From Sphyrna mokarran (taxonomy: Eukaryota), in NCBI GenBank assembly GCA_024679065.1, contig JAGIQG010000009.1, forward strand, positions 90,272,001 through 90,336,000: 64,000 bases of DNA, in the 5' to 3' direction. The translations under genes and the position numbers were made by a program. Below the pieces are notes generated by a model. That model was not told the origin of the DNA, ran no database searches, and was given only the letters and a program-made list of their open reading frames with translations. Shown piece by piece: positions 10,261-50,872 of the stretch (position 1 is the first letter of the stretch; the number at the start of each line of letters is the position of its first letter).

Positions 10261-11344
10261 GGTTGTGAAGAAAGCATATAGTATGCTAGTCTTTATAGGA
10301 AGGGGTATAGAGTACAACAGCTGGCCTTTAATGTTGCAGTTGTATAAAACGTTGGTTAGGCCTCATTTGGAATATTGCATCCAGTTCTGGTCACCTTACT
10401 ACCGGAAGGACGTGGAGACTCTGGAGAGAGTGCAGAGGAGGTTTACCAGGATGCTGCCTGGTATGGAAGGTCTGAGTTACGAGGAGAGATTAGGCAAATC
10501 AGGACTGTTTTCCTCAGAAAGACGTAGACTTAGAAGAGATCTGATAGAGGTGTACAAGATTATGAGGGGTATAGATAGAGTAAACAGGGTTAAGCTTTTT
10601 CCTAGGATGGACATAAATACCATGTGGGGTCAAGGCTTAGGGTGAGTGGGTAAGGTATAATTTAGATCTAGAGGTAGTTTTTTCCAGAGGGTGGTGGCGG
10701 TATGGAACGTGCTGCCAAGTGGTGGAGGCAGGCACTCTGGAGTTATTTAAGAGATACTTAGATGGGCACATGAACAGAATGGGAATGGAGGGATATAGAA
10801 AACTGGTTTAAAATAGGGATCATGAGCCTTGGAGTTCCCTGGGAAGTGTGTAAATTGTCAATAATATTTATGTATTTGTTTTATCCTACAGGTACTTTGG
10901 TCCGCCTTGTTGTCTAACAAGGGGCATACACGCAAGGGGTCGTAAGAGGGCTGCTCTTGGATTGTTTTTTGAGAGTATCCTAGTGCTTCATGTCATTAGT
11001 GTACGCTTGACCTGGACTATTTGATGGGCAACACGACAGCTCAGTGACTATCGCTGTGCTGTGCAGATACATGGATTTGGGCCTGTGTCTGTGGGAGTTT
11101 GCGCATTCTCCCTGTGCTTGTGTGGGTTTTCTCCAGGTGCTCCGGTTTCCTCCCACATCCCAAAAATGTGCTCTTAGGCTGACTGGCAGAACAAATTCTC
11201 CCTAAATTGTGTCAAATTTGGTTTCAATGCATAGATCTATAAACATAGACAGGGATCATGGGTAGAAGTGGGAACATCGAGGTGGTGGCATGAGCTCATT
11301 GGGCCGAAGGGCCTGTTTCCCGTGCTGTTTTGTTCTTTGTTCTT
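10261..11344 (+). mobile_element. CR1 subfamily B 3' fragment with extended 3' UTR (hairpin + captured SINE), inserted into an older CR1
   Basis: ORF2 C-terminus (10265..10645), ~530-nt 3' UTR, (TTCTTTG)n tail. TGTCT duplicated at 10256-10260 and 11345-11349; the host CR1 RT resumes across the insertion. Confidence 0.88.
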
Positions 11345-11976
11345 TGTCTACAATTTATATAATGACTTGGATGAAGGGACTGAAAGATTGGTTGCTAGGC
11401 TTGCTTATGTGACAAAGTAGGAAAGTTGTAAAGAGGACAAGAGGGGGCTACAAATAGACTTAGATAGGTTAATTGTATGGGCAAAGTACCATGTTGGAAA
11501 ATGTGGAATTGTCAATTTTGGCAGGAGAATAAAAAAGCAAACTATTTAAATGATGAAAGGTTGCCAAACCCTGAGTTGTAGAGGGATCTGGATGTCCTCA
11601 TGCATGAATCACAGAAGGCTCATACAGAGGTACAGCAAGTAGTTAGGAAAGCTAATAGAATGTTATGATGATACTGTGCCTTTAAGAAATGTATTTGAGC
11701 CATGTTCTTGTGTGGGATCTGTCGTAAACGGATAACTACCTATTTTTAAACAATGAGTATGGGTGTGCGTGCGTGCATGTGACTAAGTTAATTGAACTGA
11801 AAACAGTCAGAAAGTGCAAGTCATCAAAAGGTTTGGTATTAAACAGGCATTTTGAAATGAAGATTAGCAAAGCTAAGATGGAGATAGAACATAGAACATA
11901 GAACATTACAGCACAGAACAGGCCCTTCGGCCTTCGATGTTGCGCCGACCAAAATAAAAAGCAATGCCCCTCCAAA

Positions 11977-14741
11977 CTAAGCCATTCCCTTCTCTTCCAT
12001 ATTCTTATCAACTAACCTCTTAAACGCCACCAAACTTGGCGCATCTACAACTGCTGCAGGCAGGGCATTCCACTCCTGAACCACCCTTTGGGTAAAGAAC
12101 CTACCTCTGATATCCGTCCTATAACTATCACCCCTTAATTTAAAGCTGTGTCCCCTCGTGCTAGCTTTCTCCATCCTAGGAAAAAGGCTATCACTGTCCA
12201 CCCTATCTAAACCTCTAATCATCTTATATGTTTCAATAAGGTCTCCTCTTAGCCGCCTCCTTTCTAACGAAAACAACCTCAAATCCCTCAGCCTCTCTTC
12301 ATAAGACCTGCCCTCCATACCAGGCAACATCCTGGTAAACCTCCTCTGTACCCTCTCCAATGCCTCCACATCTTTCTTATAATGCGGGGACCAGAACTGC
12401 ACACAATACTCCAAGTGCGGCCGCACTAGAGTTTTGTACAGTTGCAACATGACGTTGCGGCTCCGAAATTCAATCCCCCTACCAATAAAAGCTAAGACTC
12501 CATATGCCTTCTTAACAACCTTCTCGACTTGACTGCCTACTTTCAGGGATCTATGCACATACACACCAAGATCCCTCTGTTCATCAAGACTACTAAGAAT
12601 CCTACCATTAGCCCTATACTCTACACATTTATTATTCCTGCCATAGTGCATTACCTCACACTTTTCCACATTAAACTCCATTTGCCACCTCTCGGCCCAG
12701 CTCTGCAACTTGTCCAAGTCTCTCTGCAAACTATAACACCCCTCTTCACTATCTACCACTCCACCGACTTTAGTGTCATCTGCAAATTTACTGATCCATC
12801 CTTCAATAACCTCATCCAGATCATTTATAAAAATTACAAACAGCAGGGGCCCCAAAACAGACCCCTGAGGTACACCACATGTCACCGAACTCCACGATGA
12901 ATATCTCCCATCAACCACCACCCTCTGTCTTCTATCTGCTAGCCAATTCCTAACCCAATTAGCTAAATCACCCTCTATCCCATACATCTGCATTTTCTGC
13001 AGAAGTCTTCCATGGGCCACCTTATCAAACGCCTTACTAAAGTCCATATATACCACATCAACCGCCTTACCCCCATCCACCTCTTTGGTCACTTTTTCAA
13101 AAAACTCAATGAGGTTAGTAAGGCACGACCTACCCTTCACAAAACCATGCTGACTATCCCCAATCAATTCATTTCTCTCTAAATAACTATAAATCCTATC
13201 CCTAATAATTCTCTCCAATACTTTGCCCACAACAGAAGTAAGACTCACTGGCCTATAATTCCCTGGAAGGTCTCTCTTCCCCTTCTTGAACAATGGGACC
13301 ACATTCGCTATCCTCCAGTCCTCCGGAACCACACCCGTAACCAACGACGACCTGAAGATCAGAGCCAGAGGCTCTGCAATCTCCTCTCTTGCCTCCCAGA
13401 GAATCCTAGGGTAAATCCCGTCCGGCCCAGGGGACTTATCCAACTTCAAACCCTCGAGAATATCTAGCACATCCTCCCTATCTACTTCGATACCTTCCAG
13501 TTTGCTACCCTGTACCTCAGTGTTCTCCATAACTACATTTGCATCACCCTGCATGAATACCGAAGAGAAATATTTATTCAGTGCCTCTCCAATCTCTTCA
13601 GGCTCCACGCACAACTTCCCCACTGCTGTCTATGACTGGCCCTAACCTTGCCCTAACCAATCTTCTATTCTTAACATATCTAAAGAAAGCTTTAGGATTC
13701 TCCTTAATCCTATCAGCCAAAGTCTTCTCGTGTCCCCTCTTAGCTCTCCTCAATTCACTCTTTAGCTCCCTCCTGGCTAATCTATAGCTATCCATTGCAC
13801 TAACTGAGCCTTCAAGCCTCATCCTGACATAAGCCTCCTTTTTCCTTTTACCAGCAAATCAACTTTTTCGTACACCAAGGTTCTCTTACTCGACCATTTC
13901 CTCCTTGCCTGACAGGGACATACTTATCAAGGACTCGCAGCAGCTGCTCCTTGAATAAGCTCCACATTCCAGATGTTCCCAGTCCCTGTAGTTTCCTAGT
14001 CCAATCTATCACCCTAATTCCCTCCTTATGGCCTCATAATTACCCTTCCCCCAGCTATAACTACTGCCCCCAGCTTCATGCCTATCCCTATCCATCACTA
14101 AGGTGAACGTAACCGAATTGTGGTCACTATCACCAAAATGTTCACTAACTTCCAAGCCTAACACCTGGTCTGGCTCATTGCCAGCACCAAATCCAATGTA
14201 GCCTCACCTCTAGTTGGCCTATCTACATACTGAGTCAAAAAACCTTCCTGCACACTTTGTACGAAAACTGACCCCTCTAACGAGCTAGAGCTATAGCTAT
14301 TCCAATCAATATTAGTAAAGTTAAAGTCCCCCATAACAATTACCCTATTACTTTCACTCCTGTCCAGGATTGACTTTGCAATCCTTTCCTCTACCTCTCT
14401 AGAACTTTAGGAGGTCTATAAAAGACTCCCAACAGGGTGACCTCTCCTCTCCTGTTTCTAATCTCAGCCCCTACTACCTCAACAGACAAGTCCTCATCAA
14501 ACTTCCTTTCTGTCACTGTGATACAGTCTTTGACTAATAATGCCACTCCTCCCCCCCTTCTACCTCCTTCTCTACTCCGACTAAAGCATTTGAACCCTGG
14601 AACCTGCAACATCCATTCTTGTCCCTGCTCTACCCAAGTCTCTGAAATGGCCACAACATCGAAGTTCCAGGTACTGGTCCAAGCTGCAAGTTCCTCCCCT
14701 TTATTGCGAATACTCCTTGCATTAAAGTATATGCATTTCAA
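11977..14741 (-). pseudogene. CR1 ORF2 (APE endonuclease + RT), frameshifted
   Basis: YFNARS/ISETW/GGGVAL (14391..14741), SDH motif, and the 548-aa RT ORF 11977..13623 with FADD. Confidence 0.92.
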
Positions 14742-14849
14742 ACCATGCCCTACCCCACCCGTATGCTGCTGTGTTTTACAGCTTTCCTCTATGACCCCCT
14801 TACTCTCATCCCTCTTAGCACCCCAACTATTCAGGATCCCACCCCCCCC

Positions 14850-15770
14850 GAATCAGTTTAAAGCCCCTGCATAGCCTTAGCAAATTTTCCCCCCAAGATA
14901 TTAGTTCCCCTCTGGTTCAGGTGTAGACCATCTCTCTTGTAGAGGTCCCACCTATCCCAGAATGAGTCCCAATTGTTCAGGAAACTGAACCCCTCCTGCA
15001 CCATCCCCGCAGCCACGAGTTCAAACATTCCCTCTCTCTATTCTTCTCTAAACTATCCCTTGGCACAGGCAAGAGTCCAGAGATAACCACTCTGCCAGTT
15101 TTGGCCCTAAGCTTCCACCCAAACTCCATAAATTTCTGTTTAATATCCCCTTCCCTCGTCCTTCCTATATCATGTGTCCCTACATGAACTATGACTTGGG
15201 GTTGACTCCCCTCTCCCTTAAGAATCTTAAAACCCGATCTGCGACATCCTGGACCCCAGCCCCTGGGAGGCAACACACCAGCCCTGAGTCCCGTTTATTA
15301 CTATTTACCCTCCTATCTGTCGCTCTAACTATGGAGTCTCCTATAACTAGGCCTAATCTCTTATTCCCCCCACCCACCTGAGCATTCTCAGCAGGCTCAC
15401 CCCCGGAGACCTGCTCCCTTTGGTCAGCTCCAGTTGATTCTTCCTCAACTGTAGCCTCCAAGACAGAAAATTTGTTTTGGAGGGGAACAGCCCCAGGGGA
15501 TTGTCTACCCAATTGCTTCTTACCCCTCCTCCTAATAGTTACCCAAGAATCACTTTTAGGAGTGACTATCTCTTTGTCACTCCTGCCAATATCCTCCTCA
15601 ACCTCTCGAATTACCCTGAGTTCCTCTAATTCCAGCTCCAGCTCCTTAACACGATCCTCAAGGAGCTGCAAATGTGCCCACTTCCTGCAGGTGTAATCAG
15701 CAGGAACACTACTGGTGTCCCTCACCTCGTACATACCGCAGGAGGTGCAACGTACTGCCTGCACTGCCAT
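14850..15770 (-). pseudogene. CR1 ORF1 (Zn finger, coiled coil, SGNH esterase-like domain), frameshifted
   Basis: CTSC...CRK(W), LEDRVKELELELEEL, then IGDSIVR, VHVGTHD and ISGLLP blocks across ORFs 15189..15815 and 14977..15276. Confidence 0.85.
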
Positions 15771-18113
15771 CCCTGATACTTTAATTTCCAGGAGAGAGAA
15801 AAAAAAACTTCCCACACACTTTTATTATTAGTTTAGAGGAGGGGGGAGGGTGGGATACTCTACCTGTGTAGAGTATTGGGTTTCCTCTCTGTACCAATTT
15901 ATAGAGACAGAGAAAACTACAACTACCGGCAGCCTCCTAATGACGACTTCTGGTTTCTAGTTAGTTTAAATAAAAACGGCAAAAACTACCCCCGCTCGCT
16001 ATTTTAAACAAAGAGAAAAGTTAAAAACTACTTAACACTCTGCATGATCTGCATGAGATAAAATTTATTCATGTTTACTTGTTGAATTTCAAAGGAAGGA
16101 TTAAACTGGCAAAGATCACAAATTAATAAAGCAATATTAAGTTTATTTCAACGGAAATCAGTCGCTATAAAGGACAAAAAGTTTTAATTCTGGGAAAGGT
16201 AGCTTCCAAAGAAAGTTAAAACAAAAGGGTTTAAAAGCTGAAAGAAAAAAAACATATCGATGGAAAGATTGATAACTGTGTTAGAAGGAGAGGCCATGAG
16301 TGGGATTTTTCCTTTCCCACCCACTACAGAAATCGTAGCGAGTGGAACACAAACATGCAAAGGTCTGTTGACCTCGAGTGATATTTTCTGGCCTTGGAGT
16401 GAGTGTGGTCAGAAAATCCCGTCCCATGTGATATTCTGAATAAGGTGCTATGTCGAGGACATAGTTTGAAGTAAACAACTTCTAGCCACCTCTCATAAGT
16501 GTTTCTTTCAGAAAGCAAGATTATGTTATGAGCCTTGGATTTCCATTATTGAGTAATGGAGAGAGAAGCCCTGTGAAATACCTCCTCCCCAATAGCAATA
16601 GTGGGTGGTTTACTGGAGCTTTTAACTGATTAAGGACCTGTGGGGACTGTTACCTGAAAAAGAATCCGAGAGTCTAGCTAAGGAAATTTGGCATCTCTGC
16701 CAAGATTCTTACCAAAGTTTATAGATGCATCATAGAAAACATTCATTTCTAGTTGTATCACAGCTTGGTATGGCTCCTGCAATGTTCAAGCTTGCAAGAA
16801 ACTACAAAAAGTAATGAATGGAGGTGTGATGACAAACTGTCTTCTTGAACTGCTGCAGTCCAGTGGTGGAGGGACTGAATGTTTGTGGGCGGGGTATCAA
16901 TCAAATGGGCTATTTTGTCCTGGATATGTTGAGCTTCTTGAGTATTGCTGGAGCTGCACTCACCAGACAAATGGAGAATATCTTATCACACTTCTGACTT
17001 GGGCCTAGCAGAAGGTGGATGAGATTTGGGGAGTCAGGAGAGTTACTCACCTCAAGATTCGCAGCCAATGACCTGCTGCTGAAGCCACAGTATTTATCCA
17101 GCTGGTCCAGTTCAGTTTCTGGTCAATAGCAACTTCAGAATGTTGATAGTAGGGTATTCAGCAATAGTAATGCCATTGGCTGTCTAGGAGCGATGACTGG
17201 ATCCTCTCCCTTGTCGGAGACAACTAACTCCTGGCATGAATGTTACTTGCTACCTATCAGCCCAAGCCTGGATATCTCCCAGGTCTTGCTGTATTTGGAC
17301 ATGAACTGCTTCAGTGCCTGAGTCATCACAAATGGTGCTGAACATTGCACAGTGAACATCTCTGTTGTGTATACTGGAGCATAACTCCTTCAACAGAATG
17401 GTTCACTGGACTGGGGCATGGGGCAAGTTAGCCAAGAATCGCTTTGAACGGTCAATGTTTGCAGTGTGGAACAAGTAGATTGAATAAAGATCTGTATTCC
17501 CTGACATCTGGCTGTGGGGTATCTTGAGGAGCCACCTCAGTACTGAGAGATTTAACAATCCCAGTTCTTACCTTACAATGGAAAAAGGATCATTGATGAA
17601 GCAGCTGAAGATTGTTGGGCCTAGGACACTATCCCGATATGATGACCTATCCTGAGATATGGACCTCCAATCACCACAGCCATCTTTCTGTGTGTCAGAT
17701 ATGACTCAAACCAGCACAGCGTTTTCATCTGATTCCCACTGCCTCCAGTTTTGCTGGGGATCCTTGATGCTACTTCGGTCAAATGCTGTTGAGAGCAGTT
17801 ACCCTCACTTCACCACTGGAGTTAACCTCATTTTTGAACCCATATTTGAACCACGGCTTAACGAGGTCAGGAGCTGAGTGACTCTGGTGAAACCCAAACT
17901 GGGTGTCACTGAGTAGTACTGCTTGATAGTACTGTTGATGACCTCTTCCATCACTTTATTGATGATCGAGAATAGACTGGGTTGGATTTGGCCTGCTTTT
18001 TGTATACAAGATGTAGATATGCCGGCGTTGGTCTGGGGTAGTAAGAACTCAGGTAGATTCAGTAAGAATCTAGCGACACCAATTTTAAATCCAACCGACT
18101 TATTTGATAGTAA

Positions 18114-37176: not shown

Positions 37177-38645
37177 AAAGAACAAAGAACACAACAGCAC
37201 GGAAAACAGGCCCTTCGGCCCAAGGAGCCTGCGCCGCCACCCCAATGTTCCCACCTCTACCCGTGGATCCCTGTCCATGTTTATAGATCTATGGATTAAA
37301 AACCAAATTTGAGACAATTTAGGGAGAATTTGTTTTGCCAATTAGCTTAAGAGCACATCTTTGGGATGTGGGAGGAAACCGGAGCACCCGGAGAAAACCC
37401 ACGCAAGCACGGGGAGAATGCGCAAACTCTCACAGACACAGGCCCAAATCCATGTATCTGCACAGCACAGTGATAGTCACTGAGCTGTTGTGTTGCCCAT
37501 CAAATGGTCCAAGTCAAGCGTACACTAATGACGTGAAGCACTAGGATACTGTCCAAAAAAAATCCAAGAGCAGCTCTCTCACGACCCATTGCATCTATGC
37601 CCCTCATTAGACAACAAGGTGGACCAAAGCACCTACAGGATAAAAACAAGTACATCAATATCATCTATTTACACACTTCCCAGGGACTCCCAAGGCTCAT
37701 GATCCCTATATTAAATCAGTTTTCTATACCCCTCCATTCCTATTCTGTTCATGTGCCCATCTAAGTATTTCTTCAATAACTCCAGAGTACCTGCCTCCAC
37801 CACTTTACTTGGCAGCGCATTCCATACCCCCACCACCCTCTGTGTGAAAAATCTCCCTCTAGCATCCAAATTATACCTTACCCCTCTCACCCTAAGCCCG
37901 TGACCCCTCGTGCTATTTGAGTCCATCCTAGGAAAAAGCTTAACCCTGTTTACTCTATCTATACCCCTCATAATCTTGTACACATCTATTAGATCTCCTC
38001 TAAGTCTACGTCTTTCTAAGGAAAACAGTCCCAATTTGCCTAACCTCTGCTCGTGACTCAGACCTTCCATACCAGGCAGCATCCTGGTAAACCTCCTCTA
38101 CAGGCTCTCCAGAGTCTCCACGTCCTTCTGGTAGTAAGGCGACCAGAACTGGACGCAGTATTCTAAATGAGGTCTAACCAACGTTTTATACAACTGCAAC
38201 ATTAAAGGCCAGCTCTTGTACTCTATACCTCTTCCTATGAAGGCTAACATACTATATGCTTTCTTCACAACTTTTTCCACTTGCTCTGCCACCTTCAGAA
38301 ACTTGTTCACCTGCACCCCCAGGTCCCTCTGCATTTCTATACTCTTAATAGGTCTACCTTTTATCATATACCTCCCCACTACATTTTTTCTCCCAAAATG
38401 CATCACCTCACATTTATCAGGATTGAATTCCATCTGCCGTCTGTCTGCCCAAGCTACCAGCCTATCTATGTCCTGCTGCATCGCCTGACAATGCTCCTCA
38501 CTATCCGCAAGTCCAGCCATCTTTGTATCGTCTGCAAACTTGTTGATCACTCCACTTACTCCTTCTTCCAAGTCATTTATATATATTACAAATAGAAGAG
38601 GTCCCAGTACCGAGCCCTGCAGCACACCACTAGTGACCGACCTCC
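37177..38645 (-). mobile_element. CR1 subfamily B with extended 3' UTR (hairpin + captured SINE)
   Basis: RT ORFs 38098..38685 and 37711..38082; the 3' UTR is collinear with 10810-11344. Confidence 0.9.
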
Positions 38646-47099: not shown

Positions 47100-50000
47100 A
47101 TGAAGATCCTCATTATATTTTTCGGACTTTGTGGACTATTTGGACTTAATGGACGTACGATAGTAAAAAAACAAGTTACCCAAAGACTGCATGCTTATAC
47201 TTATTTATATATCTCATGTATGCTGAAAAATTGAATATAAGCAAGTTTGGGTTTGTATCCACATCCCCGTCCATTCAAAAGGAGGAATATCTCTCCAATC
47301 CCTCCCATGGTGGAGTGGATTTTACGTCAAAATCAAACAGGAATTGGGGGAGATATGATAAAATGGAAATCAGCCAACTACGAAATGACTAGGTTTTCAG
47401 CTTGGTACCAACCTGCTTATAATCATGCCTTGCTTCCACTTTCTTTTATTATCCCCTCAAATGACGTGTGAAATTCCCTATGTTATAGTAAATCAGGGAA
47501 ACGAAAGTTGATGGGGCAAAGTAGATGCAACCTTACAGCTGAGGGGGAAGGACGGGGAGGAATTTGTACAGTGTGTTTTAGAAGGGTCCTTGGAGCAGTA
47601 TGTGGATGGCCCGACTAGAGTGGGGGCTATACTGGATCTGGTTCTGGGGAATGAGCCAGGGCAGGTGGTTGACATTGTAGTAGGAGAGCATGTGTCAAAT
47701 AGTGACCACTCTGTCTGCTTTAGGATATTAATGGAAAAAGATTAAGCCTGCCTTAAGGGGAGGGTGTTAAACTGGGGGAGGGCTAGATACAGCCAAATTA
47801 GGCAGGATCTTAAGGATACCGACTGGGATAAGCTGTTCGAGGGTAGGTCGACGCTGCACATGTGTGAGTCTTTCAAGGAAAAACTAAAATCTTTGCAGGA
47901 AAGACAAGTGCCGGTAAGGAGGAAGGATGGGAAAGGTAGGATTAGAGAACCGTGGGTTACTAGGGATATTGAGGACTTGATCAGGAAGAAGCGGGAGGCG
48001 TATTTTAGATCTAGGCAACTGTGGACAGAGACAGTGCTGGAAGAATATAGAGAGTGTAGACGGGATCTTAAAAGGGGTGTCAGAAAGGCAAAAAGGGGCC
48101 ATGAAATGGCTTTGGCAGATAGGATTAAGGAAAATCCTAAGGCATTTTACTCCTACGTAAGGAGCAAAAGGATGGTTAGAGGGAAGATTGGACCTCTCAG
48201 GGACAGAGGAGGGGAACTATGCTTAGAGCCTGAGGGAATGGGGGAGATCCTGAATGAATACTTTGCGTCGGTATTCACGCGGGAGAGGGGCCTGATGTCT
48301 GGTGCCGGCTTTGAGGAATTTGAGGACCCGTTAAAGGAAATAATCATTACGAGGGAAGAGGTGTTGGGGCTTTTAGGCAGCATAAAGACTTATAAAGCTC
48401 CGGGGCCTGATGGCATTTACCCCAGGCTGCTAAGGGAGGTGAGAGATGACCTTGCTGGGCCTCTGACGCAAATCTTTGTCTCTTCTTTGGACACAGGTGA
48501 GGTCCCAGAGGACTGGAGGATAGCAAATGTAGTACCGTTGTTTAAAAAGGGTCAGAGGGATAACCCAGGGAATTATAGGCCGGTGAGCTTGACTTCAGTT
48601 ATAGGTAAGCTAATGGAGAGGATCCTCAGGGATAGGATGTATGAGCATCTGGAGCGCTGCAATCTGATCAGGGATACGCAGCATGGCTTCGTTAAGGGGA
48701 GGTCGTGCCTTACGACCCTAGTGGAATTTTTTGAAGAGGTGACAAAAACGGTTGATGAAGGACAAGCCGTTGATGTCGTCTACATGGATTTCAGTAAGGC
48801 GTTTGACAAGGTTCCTCATGGTAGGCTGATAGAAAAGTTGAAGGTGCATGGGATACAGGGCCAGGTATGTAGATGGGTTGAGAACTGGCTTGGGAGGAGG
48901 AGACAGCGGGTAGCAGTGGAAGGCTCTTTTTCCAACTGGAGGTCTGTCACTAGTGGTGTGCCACAGGGCTCAGTACTAGGACCTCTTCTATTTGTGGTTT
49001 ATATAAATGACTTGGAAGAGGGGTAGGTGGTGTGATCAGCAAATTTGCTGATGACGCTAAGATGCTTGGAGTGGCGGGAACTGAGGAGCAGTGCCAGGAA
49101 ATACAACAGGACATAGATAGGCTGGTAGAATGGGCAGATAGATGGCAAATGGAATTTAATCCGGATAAATGCAAGGTGATGCATTTTGGCTGGAAAAATG
49201 TAGCGGGGAGTTATAGGATAAAAGGTAAAACTATCCGGAGTATAGAGACGCAGAGAGACCTGGGGGTGCAGGTTCACAAGTCTCTGAAGGTGTCAGTACA
49301 GGTGGAAAAGGTGATAAAGAAAGCTTATGGTATGTTAGCCTTCATAGGAAGGGGTATAGAATACAAGAGTAGGAGTTTGATGTTGCAAGTGTATAGAACG
49401 TTGGTTAGGCCTCACTTGGAGTACTGCGTCCAGTTCTGGTCGCTGTACTACCGGAAGGATGTGGAGTCCCTGGAGAGAGTGCAGAGGAGATTTACCAGGA
49501 TGTTGCCTGGTATGGAAGGGCTGTCCTATGAGGAAAGATTGAACACACTGGGGTTGTTTTCCCTTGAAAGACGTCGGCTGAGAGGGGATCTAATAGAGGT
49601 ATATAAGATTATGAGGGGTATAGACAGAGTAAATGGTGGTAAGCTTTTTCCACCATTAGAAATGAATAGAACAAGGGGATAGAATAGAAATAGAATAGAA
49701 ATAGAATGAAGGTCACGGCCTTAGGGTGAGGGGGGCTATGTACAAGACGAATATTAGAGGGCAGTTTTTCACACAAAGGGTAGTGGGGGTGTGGAATGCA
49801 CTACCGAGTAAGGTGGTGGGAGCAGGCACGCTACGGTTGTTTAAGGGTCTCTTAGACAGCCACATGAGCGGTCTGCAGATAGAGGGATATAGCAGGACTG
49901 TCTAAATATCTTATTTGTTTCCACAGGTTATTCGGTCCATGCATTCGGCAGGTCGTGCGAGGGCCGCTCTTGGATGTTGCTTCAGGAGTGGCCTAGTACT

Positions 50001-50872
50001 TCACGTCGTTAGTGTATGCTTAAACTGGACCATCTGATGGGCAACATGACAGCTCAGAGACTATCGCTGTTGCTGTGCAGACACATGGATTTGGGCCTGT
50101 GCCTGTGGGAGTTTGCGCATTCTCCCCGTGGTTGCGTGGGTTTTCTCTGGGTGCTCCGGTTTCCTCCCACATCCCAAAAATGTGCTCTTAGGCTGATTGG
50201 GCAACAAATTTTCCCTATATTGGTCCCTATACGTCATTAAGACGTTAGGACGGCGGCGCGGGCTCATTGGGCCGAAGGGCCTGTTTCCCGTGCTGTGTTG
50301 CTCTTTGTTCTTTGTTCTTGTTCTTTGACCAGTAGCAAACCTATCTACCAAAGAGTACGGAATATAACCTCTAATAGCTCATGGGCACATAACATCCCCA
50401 ACACCCTGGATGACATTGGCTGATGATTTTACAGTCTATAATGGGAAATCTGGCAAACGTAACAGCAGCAGAAGCCAGGACAATTGGCCAGGCACTGGCC
50501 GAGGTCTAGGCTGACGTGGTGGCTGTCGGGACTGTCGCATTACAAAATCGACTGGCTTTGGATTATCTGTTAGCCTCGCAGGGAGGAACGTGTGCTATTG
50601 TAGGTCAGAAGTGCTGCACTTATATCCCAGATAACTCTGAAAATATCACCAACCTGGCTGGCTACATGAAGAGGCAGGCTAATCAGCTTCAGGAGGTTGG
50701 CCGGGAGTTTCATGATTATAACCCACCGGGTTGGTTAGGATGGTTAAGTCACAGATTATTCGACTGAATCTTTAAGGCTTTTATTTTGCTACTATTACTG
50801 TTACTTGGGATAGGATTTCTTGTTTGCTTGTGTAGATGTATTATTAATCAAGTCATGGATATACCTATTTAG
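47100..50872 (+). pseudogene. env: ERV env remnant (gamma-type), split by a CR1 insertion
   Basis: ATG at 47100 with signal-like MKILIIFFGLCGLFG and a degenerate (C)WVC motif at ~47245. After the CR1: heptad region, ISD LQNRLALDYLL, CX6CC (CAIVGQKCC) and hydrophobic anchor IFKAFILLLLLLLGIGFLVC, ending at TAG 50872. Several stops. Confidence 0.9.
47543..50325 (+). mobile_element. CR1 subfamily B' inserted in ERV env, carrying the extended 3' UTR cassette
   Basis: ORFs 47764..49026 and 49032..49682; an (AATAG)n insertion at ~49679-49708; cassette at 49905-50205; (TTCTTTG)n tail. Confidence 0.92.

Follow-up and report, generated by a model that had tools for sequence, protein, structure and literature searches.

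A conserved RNA hairpin behind a 3' splice acceptor in the 3' untranslated region of a CR1 retrotransposon clade of Sphyrna mokarran

Retrotransposons without long terminal repeats (LTRs) are usually thought to require only a terminal stem-loop at their 3' end, which raises the question of what a second, much longer hairpin is doing in the 3' untranslated region (UTR) of one such element in a shark genome. The stretch considered here, called the window throughout, comprises 64,000 nucleotides (nt) of Sphyrna mokarran DNA (assembly GCA_024679065.1, contig JAGIQG010000009.1, positions 90,272,001 to 90,336,000, forward strand), and the element is a CR1, a long interspersed nuclear element (LINE), whose hairpin lies between the stop codon of its second open reading frame (ORF2) and a captured V-type short interspersed nuclear element (V-SINE). 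The hairpin is real, and its RNA fold is very probably under selection; the CR1 3' UTR in which it sits is of a new type and also holds an unexpected working splice acceptor, while its mechanism is what we infer. Its clade thus retains, beyond the terminal stem-loop, a 300-nt block running from acceptor through hairpin to V domain; the sequence-only reading that first described the hairpin overlooked both the acceptor and the constraint over this whole block, and did not mention that the hairpin is distinct from the terminal stem-loop at 50268-50284. The features are as follows, in window positions.

47541..50330 (start approximate), + strand: 5'-truncated CR1 LINE copy of subfamily B, with the reverse transcriptase (RT) domain RVT_1 in 47746-49023
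49903..49926, + strand: ORF2 stop TAA (49903-49905), branch-like A, pyrimidine tract and acceptor CAG (AG at 49925-49926), as read from the sequence
49920..50041, + strand: extended rod, with a predicted lower helix (49920-49927 with 50033-50041) over the acceptor AG, from the alignment fold
49934..50031, + strand: core hairpin with closing helix, arm of about 33 bp and apical stem; side hairpin deleted
49923..49939, + strand: foot of the rod, predicted to form a duplex with the terminal stem-loop of the same element
50039..50185, + strand: captured V-SINE, made up of a V domain and a degenerate tRNA-type head whose B box is eroded
50268..50330, + strand: terminal GGCC-GAAG-GGCC stem-loop (50268-50284) and (TTCTTTG)n tail, common to short-UTR CR1 families
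10890..11018, + strand: subfamily A copy, with acceptor AG (10890-10891) and hairpin with side arm
37506..37634, - strand: decayed subfamily A copy, with acceptor and hairpin

By its ORF content and tail the element is classed as a CR1. The ORF2 of another locus (L177) matches PF03372/PF14529 (endonuclease) and PF00078 (RT), the latter also found at 47746-49023 of the window, and three full-length relatives of about 4.6 kb (L178, L180 and L182) combine an esterase-type ORF1 with an endonuclease-RT ORF2, the ORF1 of L182 matching PF17182 and PF13472 (E 2e-7; 32 bits, slightly below the cut-off of 32.9). An esterase ORF1 is encoded by, or clusters with, vertebrate CR1s according to the available part of a recent survey (PMC13343379). 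The clade numbers at least 40,199 copies in the genome, this being the count of an exact 20-mer directly 3' of the hairpin, against zero for the control, and the point of 5' truncation varies among its other copies. Other CR1 families at the same loci keep a short UTR from stop to terminal stem-loop, so the 3' UTR module is an acquisition of this clade, to which it has added 350-600 nt made up of spacer, acceptor, rod and a whole degenerate V-SINE. The window itself abounds in CR1-type ORFs and in tRNA-headed SINEs with a V-type body, and the earlier description of the UTR as chimeric was apt, for the sequence behind the hairpin is 75-88% similar to free SINE copies that have a full head, and its V domain shares 74-89% identity with free SINE copies in the same genome. 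It is nevertheless a relic rather than a free SINE, as intact A and B boxes for RNA polymerase III are missing from it: the B-box region is 15 nt shorter in seven of the eight subfamily groups described below and altered in the remaining one (E), which retains more of it than the others, and a tRNA search found none. The embedded SINE is putatively HE1/V-SINE, a name that agrees with a table in PMC3747384, which pairs the HE1 SINE with the HER1 LINE. The terminal stem-loop is presumably the binding site of the ORF2 protein (ORF2p), as known LINE biology would have it, and 3' stem-loops of this kind are described as bound by ORF2p in stringent LINEs in the portion of PMC4176376 consulted.

How well the hairpin folds depends on the copy. 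All three closing helices proposed earlier (49934-49939 with 50026-50031, 10899-10904 with 11013-11018, and 37625-37620 with 37511-37506) were found, together with the apical stem and the side hairpin, and the copy at 49934 folds far better than its shuffled controls (-44 kcal/mol, z -4.77, none of 200 shuffles as good); the copy at 10899 folds weakly (z -1.89, 7 of 200) and that at 37625 no better than chance (z 0.04, 94 of 200), an unevenness to be expected of insertions that decay. The reverse strands of the three gave z of -0.3 to -1.1. We therefore turned to 249 distinct copies. These are best matches and position-ordered pattern matches and do not sample the genome at random; motif rules divide them into eight groups (A 83, E 41, C 37, B 33, F 20, B3 16, B2 11 and D 8). 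The majority sequences of all eight beat their shuffles, with core z of -2.6 to -6.1, and share one architecture, made up of a closing helix, an arm of about 33 bp and a side hairpin, the last of which B has lost by deletion and C has in a shorter form. Copies diverge from their own majority by 8.4% in E, 1.9% in B and in C, and 13% in F; E is the oldest well-defined group, and F is probably mixed. In group E (L145-L169), the 165-nt spacer before the acceptor contains a further possible hairpin, seen by eye, with z -2.0 in one copy, which is lost in younger groups.

The grouped alignment also recasts several details of the first hand-made fold. The side hairpin had been described as present in two copies and absent from the third; it is a perfect 18-bp palindrome in group E, is ancestral, and was deleted in the window's subfamily B. 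Its AAUGAGG strand, found in 5 of 83 A copies beside an AACGAGG variant in 29 of 83, would most simply have arisen by CpG decay of the latter. The supposedly conserved five-nucleotide UAGU(A/G) bulge did not survive: the family sequence is UAGUG, of which the alignment fold leaves only the A unpaired. Among B copies, A occurs at 49998 in 3 of 33 and C at 49965 in 2 of 33, and each change converts a wobble to a Watson-Crick pair in the alignment register. That register pairs GUGC with GUGC (probability about 0.86) in place of the proposed CGUG..AG/CUUCACG helix (0.11-0.12), and the GCAU(A/U)C helix had compared non-homologous positions, the homologous strand being AUACAC in A, E and F and AUGCAU in B, C and D. 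Across groups the internal-loop region is almost invariant, and the lower helix (49920-49927 with 50033-50041) pairs with probabilities of 0.56-0.98. A loop-E/5S-like AGUA motif was considered and rejected, the A in question being present in only 4 of 249 copies.

Is the structure, then, maintained by selection? Between subfamilies the hairpin changes slowly relative to fourfold degenerate sites of the same elements: 9 of 98 positions against 38 of 107 for E-B (p 6e-6, about four times slower), 13 of 120 against 37 of 96 for E-D, and 11 of 119 against 28 of 105 for E-A. The tRNA-head relic and V domain are as slow (0-13%), and the 300-nt block is about as tightly constrained as second codon positions; the spacer upstream of the acceptor hardly aligns between lineages (z 1.1), and the stretch after the V domain is rich in insertions and deletions, with 23-58% identity per column against 76-87% for the block. 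Changes that distinguish subfamilies preserve the minimum free energy better than randomly placed ones in all 11 comparisons (p 0.003-0.04, the comparisons not being independent), while private singletons are neutral for pairing (pairs kept in 36 of 107 against 40.8 expected). Pairs have moved along paths such as U-A/U.G/C-G, C-G/U.G/U-A and G-C/A.C/A-U, and one U.U mismatch of E has become U-A, U.G and A-U in three other lineages. In an alignment of 16 natural copies, pairing holds in 93.8% of cells, and 8 of 500 shuffles reach the observed covariation score. Several results weigh on the other side: two-sided covariation is not significant, the four doubly changed pairs being matched by 105 of 500 shuffles; distinct subfamily changes at paired sites keep pairing in 14 of 23 cases against 9.6 expected, a modest excess; the C lineage evolves as fast as fourfold sites (B-C, 15 of 98 in the hairpin against 19 of 149); and the placement simulation may be liberal, because it also scored the head and V domain in two of four comparisons (p 0.005 and 0.015) and the antisense strand in one of four controls (p 0.02). 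On balance the RNA structure of the hairpin is very probably under selection, and the earlier suggestion of a cis-acting RNA element finds support in three observations: the hairpin diverges slowly, changes between subfamilies preserve its structure, and private changes are neutral. Editing of the ADAR type was rejected as the source of the wobble pairs (A>G 1.09% against T>C 0.84% in the hairpin, below the level in head and V domain). Coding by the last exon was also rejected, its frames and stops differing between groups.

The acceptor stands immediately before this structure. A pyrimidine tract followed by CAG|G is found in the majority sequence of all eight groups, seven bases 5' of the closing helix, and the predicted partner strand of CAG varies between groups while CAG itself stays. 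The spacer from stop codon to acceptor ranges from 165 nt in E through 101-103 in D and 81-82 in A/F to 20-21 in B, B2 and C, and the tract is always kept; its sequence turns over by 25-40% between old groups with its composition preserved, the pyrimidine fraction being 0.73-0.87 in all seven group representatives. A strict yUnAy branch motif lies at -21 to -24, within the 18-40 nt expected of a branch A, in five of the seven, and the branch position of B, B2 and C coincides with the stop codon. In folds of the full UTR the CAG has an unpaired probability of at most 0.14 in six of seven representatives, although the predicted partner differs between folds and may be the rod, upstream sequence or the terminal stem-loop.

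That the acceptor has been used is recorded in the genome. The full-length relatives L178, L180 and L182 open with a 46-nt exon followed by a GTGAGT donor, the exon sitting in a monomer of about 200 bp that is tandem in some copies, with a TATA box some 30 nt upstream of the start that follows. One locus, L215, starts at the element's 5' end, fuses the CTG|GTGAGT donor exactly to the CAG|G acceptor with 2 nt of microhomology, and continues through hairpin, SINE and tail; 4,143 nt (as measured in L178), including both ORFs, have been removed, and no target-site duplication was evident by eye. The first-exon donor was thus joined to the 3' UTR acceptor at least once and the product retrotransposed, and the spliced product would be an RNA of about 500 nt without ORFs, consisting of the 46-nt exon, hairpin, V-SINE and tail. 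L215 came from a pattern search for foreign sequence just before the start of the acceptor exon (38 matches), which fixes the 3' side of the junction but not its exact match to the first donor. A direct search with the first exon returned 238 candidates; 40 of them were scored and one of these was spliced, and 29 other first-exon loci that were read continue with GT (GTGAG in 24, GTGTCT in 5). Flanks were read for 24 of the 38 matches of one junction search and for 27 of the 195 of another, of which 100 were listed. No full-length 5' ends of A, E or F were found, which does not imply that spliced copies are absent there, and a guessed exon end for these groups gave five matches, none spliced. 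Other candidates were discounted: L328 for 6 nt of microhomology and a single exact match, L332 for a weak donor, and L202, L229 and L330 for having no donor.

A few further observations concern these 5' regions and junctions. Two loci (L333 and L216) are joined at the acceptor position to unmatched upstream sequence, which may represent exons trapped from the host or from a foreign source, or simply 5' truncation. In L238, L248, L255 and L259-L261 the 5' UTR consists of tandem monomers of about 200 bp, and a TATA box, a start site and a splice donor recur in every one of them, an arrangement reminiscent of the promoter monomers of mouse L1. Such 5' subunits are mentioned for ORF1-less elements in the part of PMC13343379 at hand, whereas the tandem-monomer elements here carry ORF1. 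A sub-lineage (L250, L252, L254, L257 and L263) has GTGTCT, a weakened first donor, in place of GTGAGT. Just 5' of ORF1, L178, L180 and L182 have another donor-like GTRAGT and another TATA box, both of which B and C retain; none of the 38 pattern matches was a retrocopy that had used this second donor.

The explanation that we favour, tentatively and at somewhat less than even odds, is that the conserved hairpin acts as a splice gate: its foot would conceal the acceptor AG and thereby keep the majority of transcripts unspliced. The hairpin would stand at the start of a spliceable last exon; both ORFs and the promoter monomer would lie within the intron, and because only unspliced RNA would carry them and could found a new master element, splicing would have to be kept low. 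In the proposed mechanism the foot would pair either with the 3' arm of the rod or with the terminal stem-loop, and the upper arm of 33 bp would serve either to nucleate the fold or as the binding site of a factor that tips this choice. We count in favour of such a gate the constraint on the hairpin and its fold, the acceptor kept in all groups, the junction in L215, and the rarity of spliced copies although the short RNA has a full tail. A good deal speaks against it, however: L215 is a single clear spliced copy, hence one event, read from genomic DNA; in B and B2 no strict branch motif is found where one would normally lie; masking leaves the greater part of the constrained arm, which is 3' of the AG, unexplained; in any fold an AG will often be predicted as paired; and if splicing were only harmful, loss of the AG would be simpler than masking. 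Three separate subfamily A insertions (L419, L420 and L422) carry CCTGCTG in place of CCTACAG and define a small sub-lineage without the acceptor AG, from which it follows that the AG is not essential for transposition. The next candidate, to which we give clearly less credence than to the gate, is that the rod is a protein-binding element for export, stability or loading of the full-length RNA into ribonucleoprotein, with the acceptor as a by-product kept for other reasons; retroviral transport and stability elements offer a parallel. The constraint on the upper arm, the V domain and the relic of the tRNA head, all remote from the AG, fits it, as do the almost invariant internal-loop region and the continued retrotransposition of AG-less copies, and L1 splice sites are treated as collateral to other cis elements in the available text of PMC5860796. 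What it leaves unexplained is a pyrimidine tract kept by composition despite 25-40% sequence turnover, and deletions that end just before that tract; moreover, short-UTR CR1 families are abundant without the module, and Rfam offers no match. Both explanations may hold together, since a gate alone does not account for the constraint on upper arm and V domain.

The remaining explanations rank lower. Neutrality, in which a fold-back was captured with the SINE and owes its conservation to exchange of 3' modules between lineages and to the tolerance of G.U pairs for transitions, seems improbable: most changes are indeed one-sided wobbles without significant two-sided covariation, and the side hairpin began as a perfect palindrome that B then lost, but the conserved block is flanked by two fast-changing stretches, private mutations show no pair-keeping bias, and there is no A-to-G editing excess. 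Lower still, and level with each other, are two proposals for particular functions. In one, the spliced non-coding RNA of about 500 nt would itself be wanted, the arm above its three-way junction serving as a Microprocessor or Dicer substrate for a small RNA. The stem of a primary microRNA transcript is about 35 bp long, which the arm of about 33 bp fits, and cleavage would also account for the rarity of spliced retrocopies; against it stand substitutions in both strands of the would-be duplex, the loss of the apical UGU in A and F, and the lack of a CNNC motif at the expected distance. In the other, the foot would be an anti-tail that pairs with the ORF2p-bound terminal stem-loop, the rod being an alternative state that frees the tail and so switches priming. 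Of the foot's 17 positions, 15-16 can pair with the stem-loop (-23 to -27 kcal/mol in six of seven representatives), this pairing wins in the folds of F and D, and several of the 38 pattern matches are plain antisense SINE or CR1 tails; yet the complementarity was noticed post hoc (shuffle p 0.012), the region scores 3.4 bits with a hidden Markov model (HMM) of the tail while shuffles reach as much as 7.0, five of seven representatives favour the rod state, and the complementarity may merely record an origin from an antisense tail fragment. Such an origin of the hairpin from CR1 or SINE tails was tried as a candidate and was not significant by HMM. One copy (L225) is joined to an antisense SINE tail by way of the foot, which resembles that tail.

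A more far-reaching version of the favoured splice gate, which we regard as unlikely in its entirety, would be a retrovirus-like strategy of two RNAs: the transcript would either be kept unspliced as genomic RNA or be spliced to a structured non-coding RNA of about 500 nt, comprising hairpin, domesticated V-SINE and ORF2p-binding tail, with the hairpin/anti-tail switch coupling splice choice to priming and the V domain working for the LINE. The spliced RNAs of murine leukaemia virus (MLV) and influenza A segment 7 encode proteins, and these viral cases have been probed experimentally, whereas the CR1 spliced product has no conserved ORF and the gating here is a proposal. In both viruses RNA structure limits the use of a splice site in an RNA that is needed unspliced as well as spliced (PMC2794156 and PMC3369869, in the parts consulted). 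A nearer relative of L215 is found among the spliced integrated retrotransposed elements (SpIREs) of human L1, where, as here, a retrotransposed spliced RNA exposes a rarely used splice site and masking by RNA structure has been suggested for the L1 donor (PMC5860796, in part). L215 has the marks of this type, namely an exact GT-AG junction, a LINE 5' start and a 3' tail. The acceptors of L1 SpIREs lie in the 5' UTR or ORF1, as the same portion of PMC5860796 reports, whereas the acceptor here lies past the ORF2 stop, splicing removes both ORFs, and, unlike in L1, a constrained hairpin with compensatory paths adjoins it. Bipartite non-autonomous LINEs likewise join 5' and 3' LINE parts without ORFs, but these are internal-deletion derivatives of RTE, Vingi and Ingi (PMC5786205, in the section available), while the junction of L215 is a GT-AG splice and its product did not amplify.

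With respect to the carrier itself, the shark and ray pair of HER1-type CR1 and HE1 V-SINE resembles the present element in esterase ORF1, endonuclease-RT ORF2, GGCC-GAAG-GGCC stem-loop and short tandem tail; sister CR1 families have a short 3' UTR, whereas here an autonomous LINE carries the SINE's body. The MER6 miniature inverted-repeat transposable element also contains a V domain whose SINE head has been lost (PMC6887750, in part); MER6 is a DNA element, the carrier here being an autonomous CR1. Why V domains are conserved is treated as an open question in the portions of PMC4824008 and PMC6887750 consulted, and an autonomous LINE that keeps one makes V conservation addressable in cis. 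Tens of thousands of copies bearing an acceptor could also trap host splicing where they lie in the sense orientation within introns.

Database comparisons agree with the first description in that no known ribozyme or non-coding RNA is recognisable: Rfam covariance models gave a best E of 2.8, below gathering and outside the hairpin, with no ribozyme family matched. A metagenome scan gave no matches, and the 72 pattern matches in a viral collection each scored at most 8.3 bits, which is chance. Public runs of six organisms and two metagenome runs share at most 0.41 of words, a figure that is not evidence on expression or range. A literature search returned no account of this CR1 3' UTR, although Repbase, Dfam and the original HE1/HER1 papers lay outside it and the family may be catalogued there; the main text of the 2026 CR1 survey (PMC13343379), in the part available, does not mention hairpin, stem or splicing.

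Finally, several minor observations concern the neighbourhood of the copies in the window. The CR1 copy at 47541-50330 appears to be nested in an LTR retroelement, as an integrase domain (PF00665, 45720-46616, + strand) lies upstream of it, and downstream, at about 50480-50600 on the + strand, is a reading LQNRLALDYLL, which resembles a retroviral envelope immunosuppressive motif. A near full-length CR1 with a short 3' UTR occupies about 11900-15950 on the minus strand, with a 550-amino-acid piece of ORF2 and a 210-amino-acid piece of ORF1, and forms a natural control for the long-UTR clade. At about 1500-1950 of another locus (L011, minus strand), a B copy is inserted within the hairpin of an older A copy.

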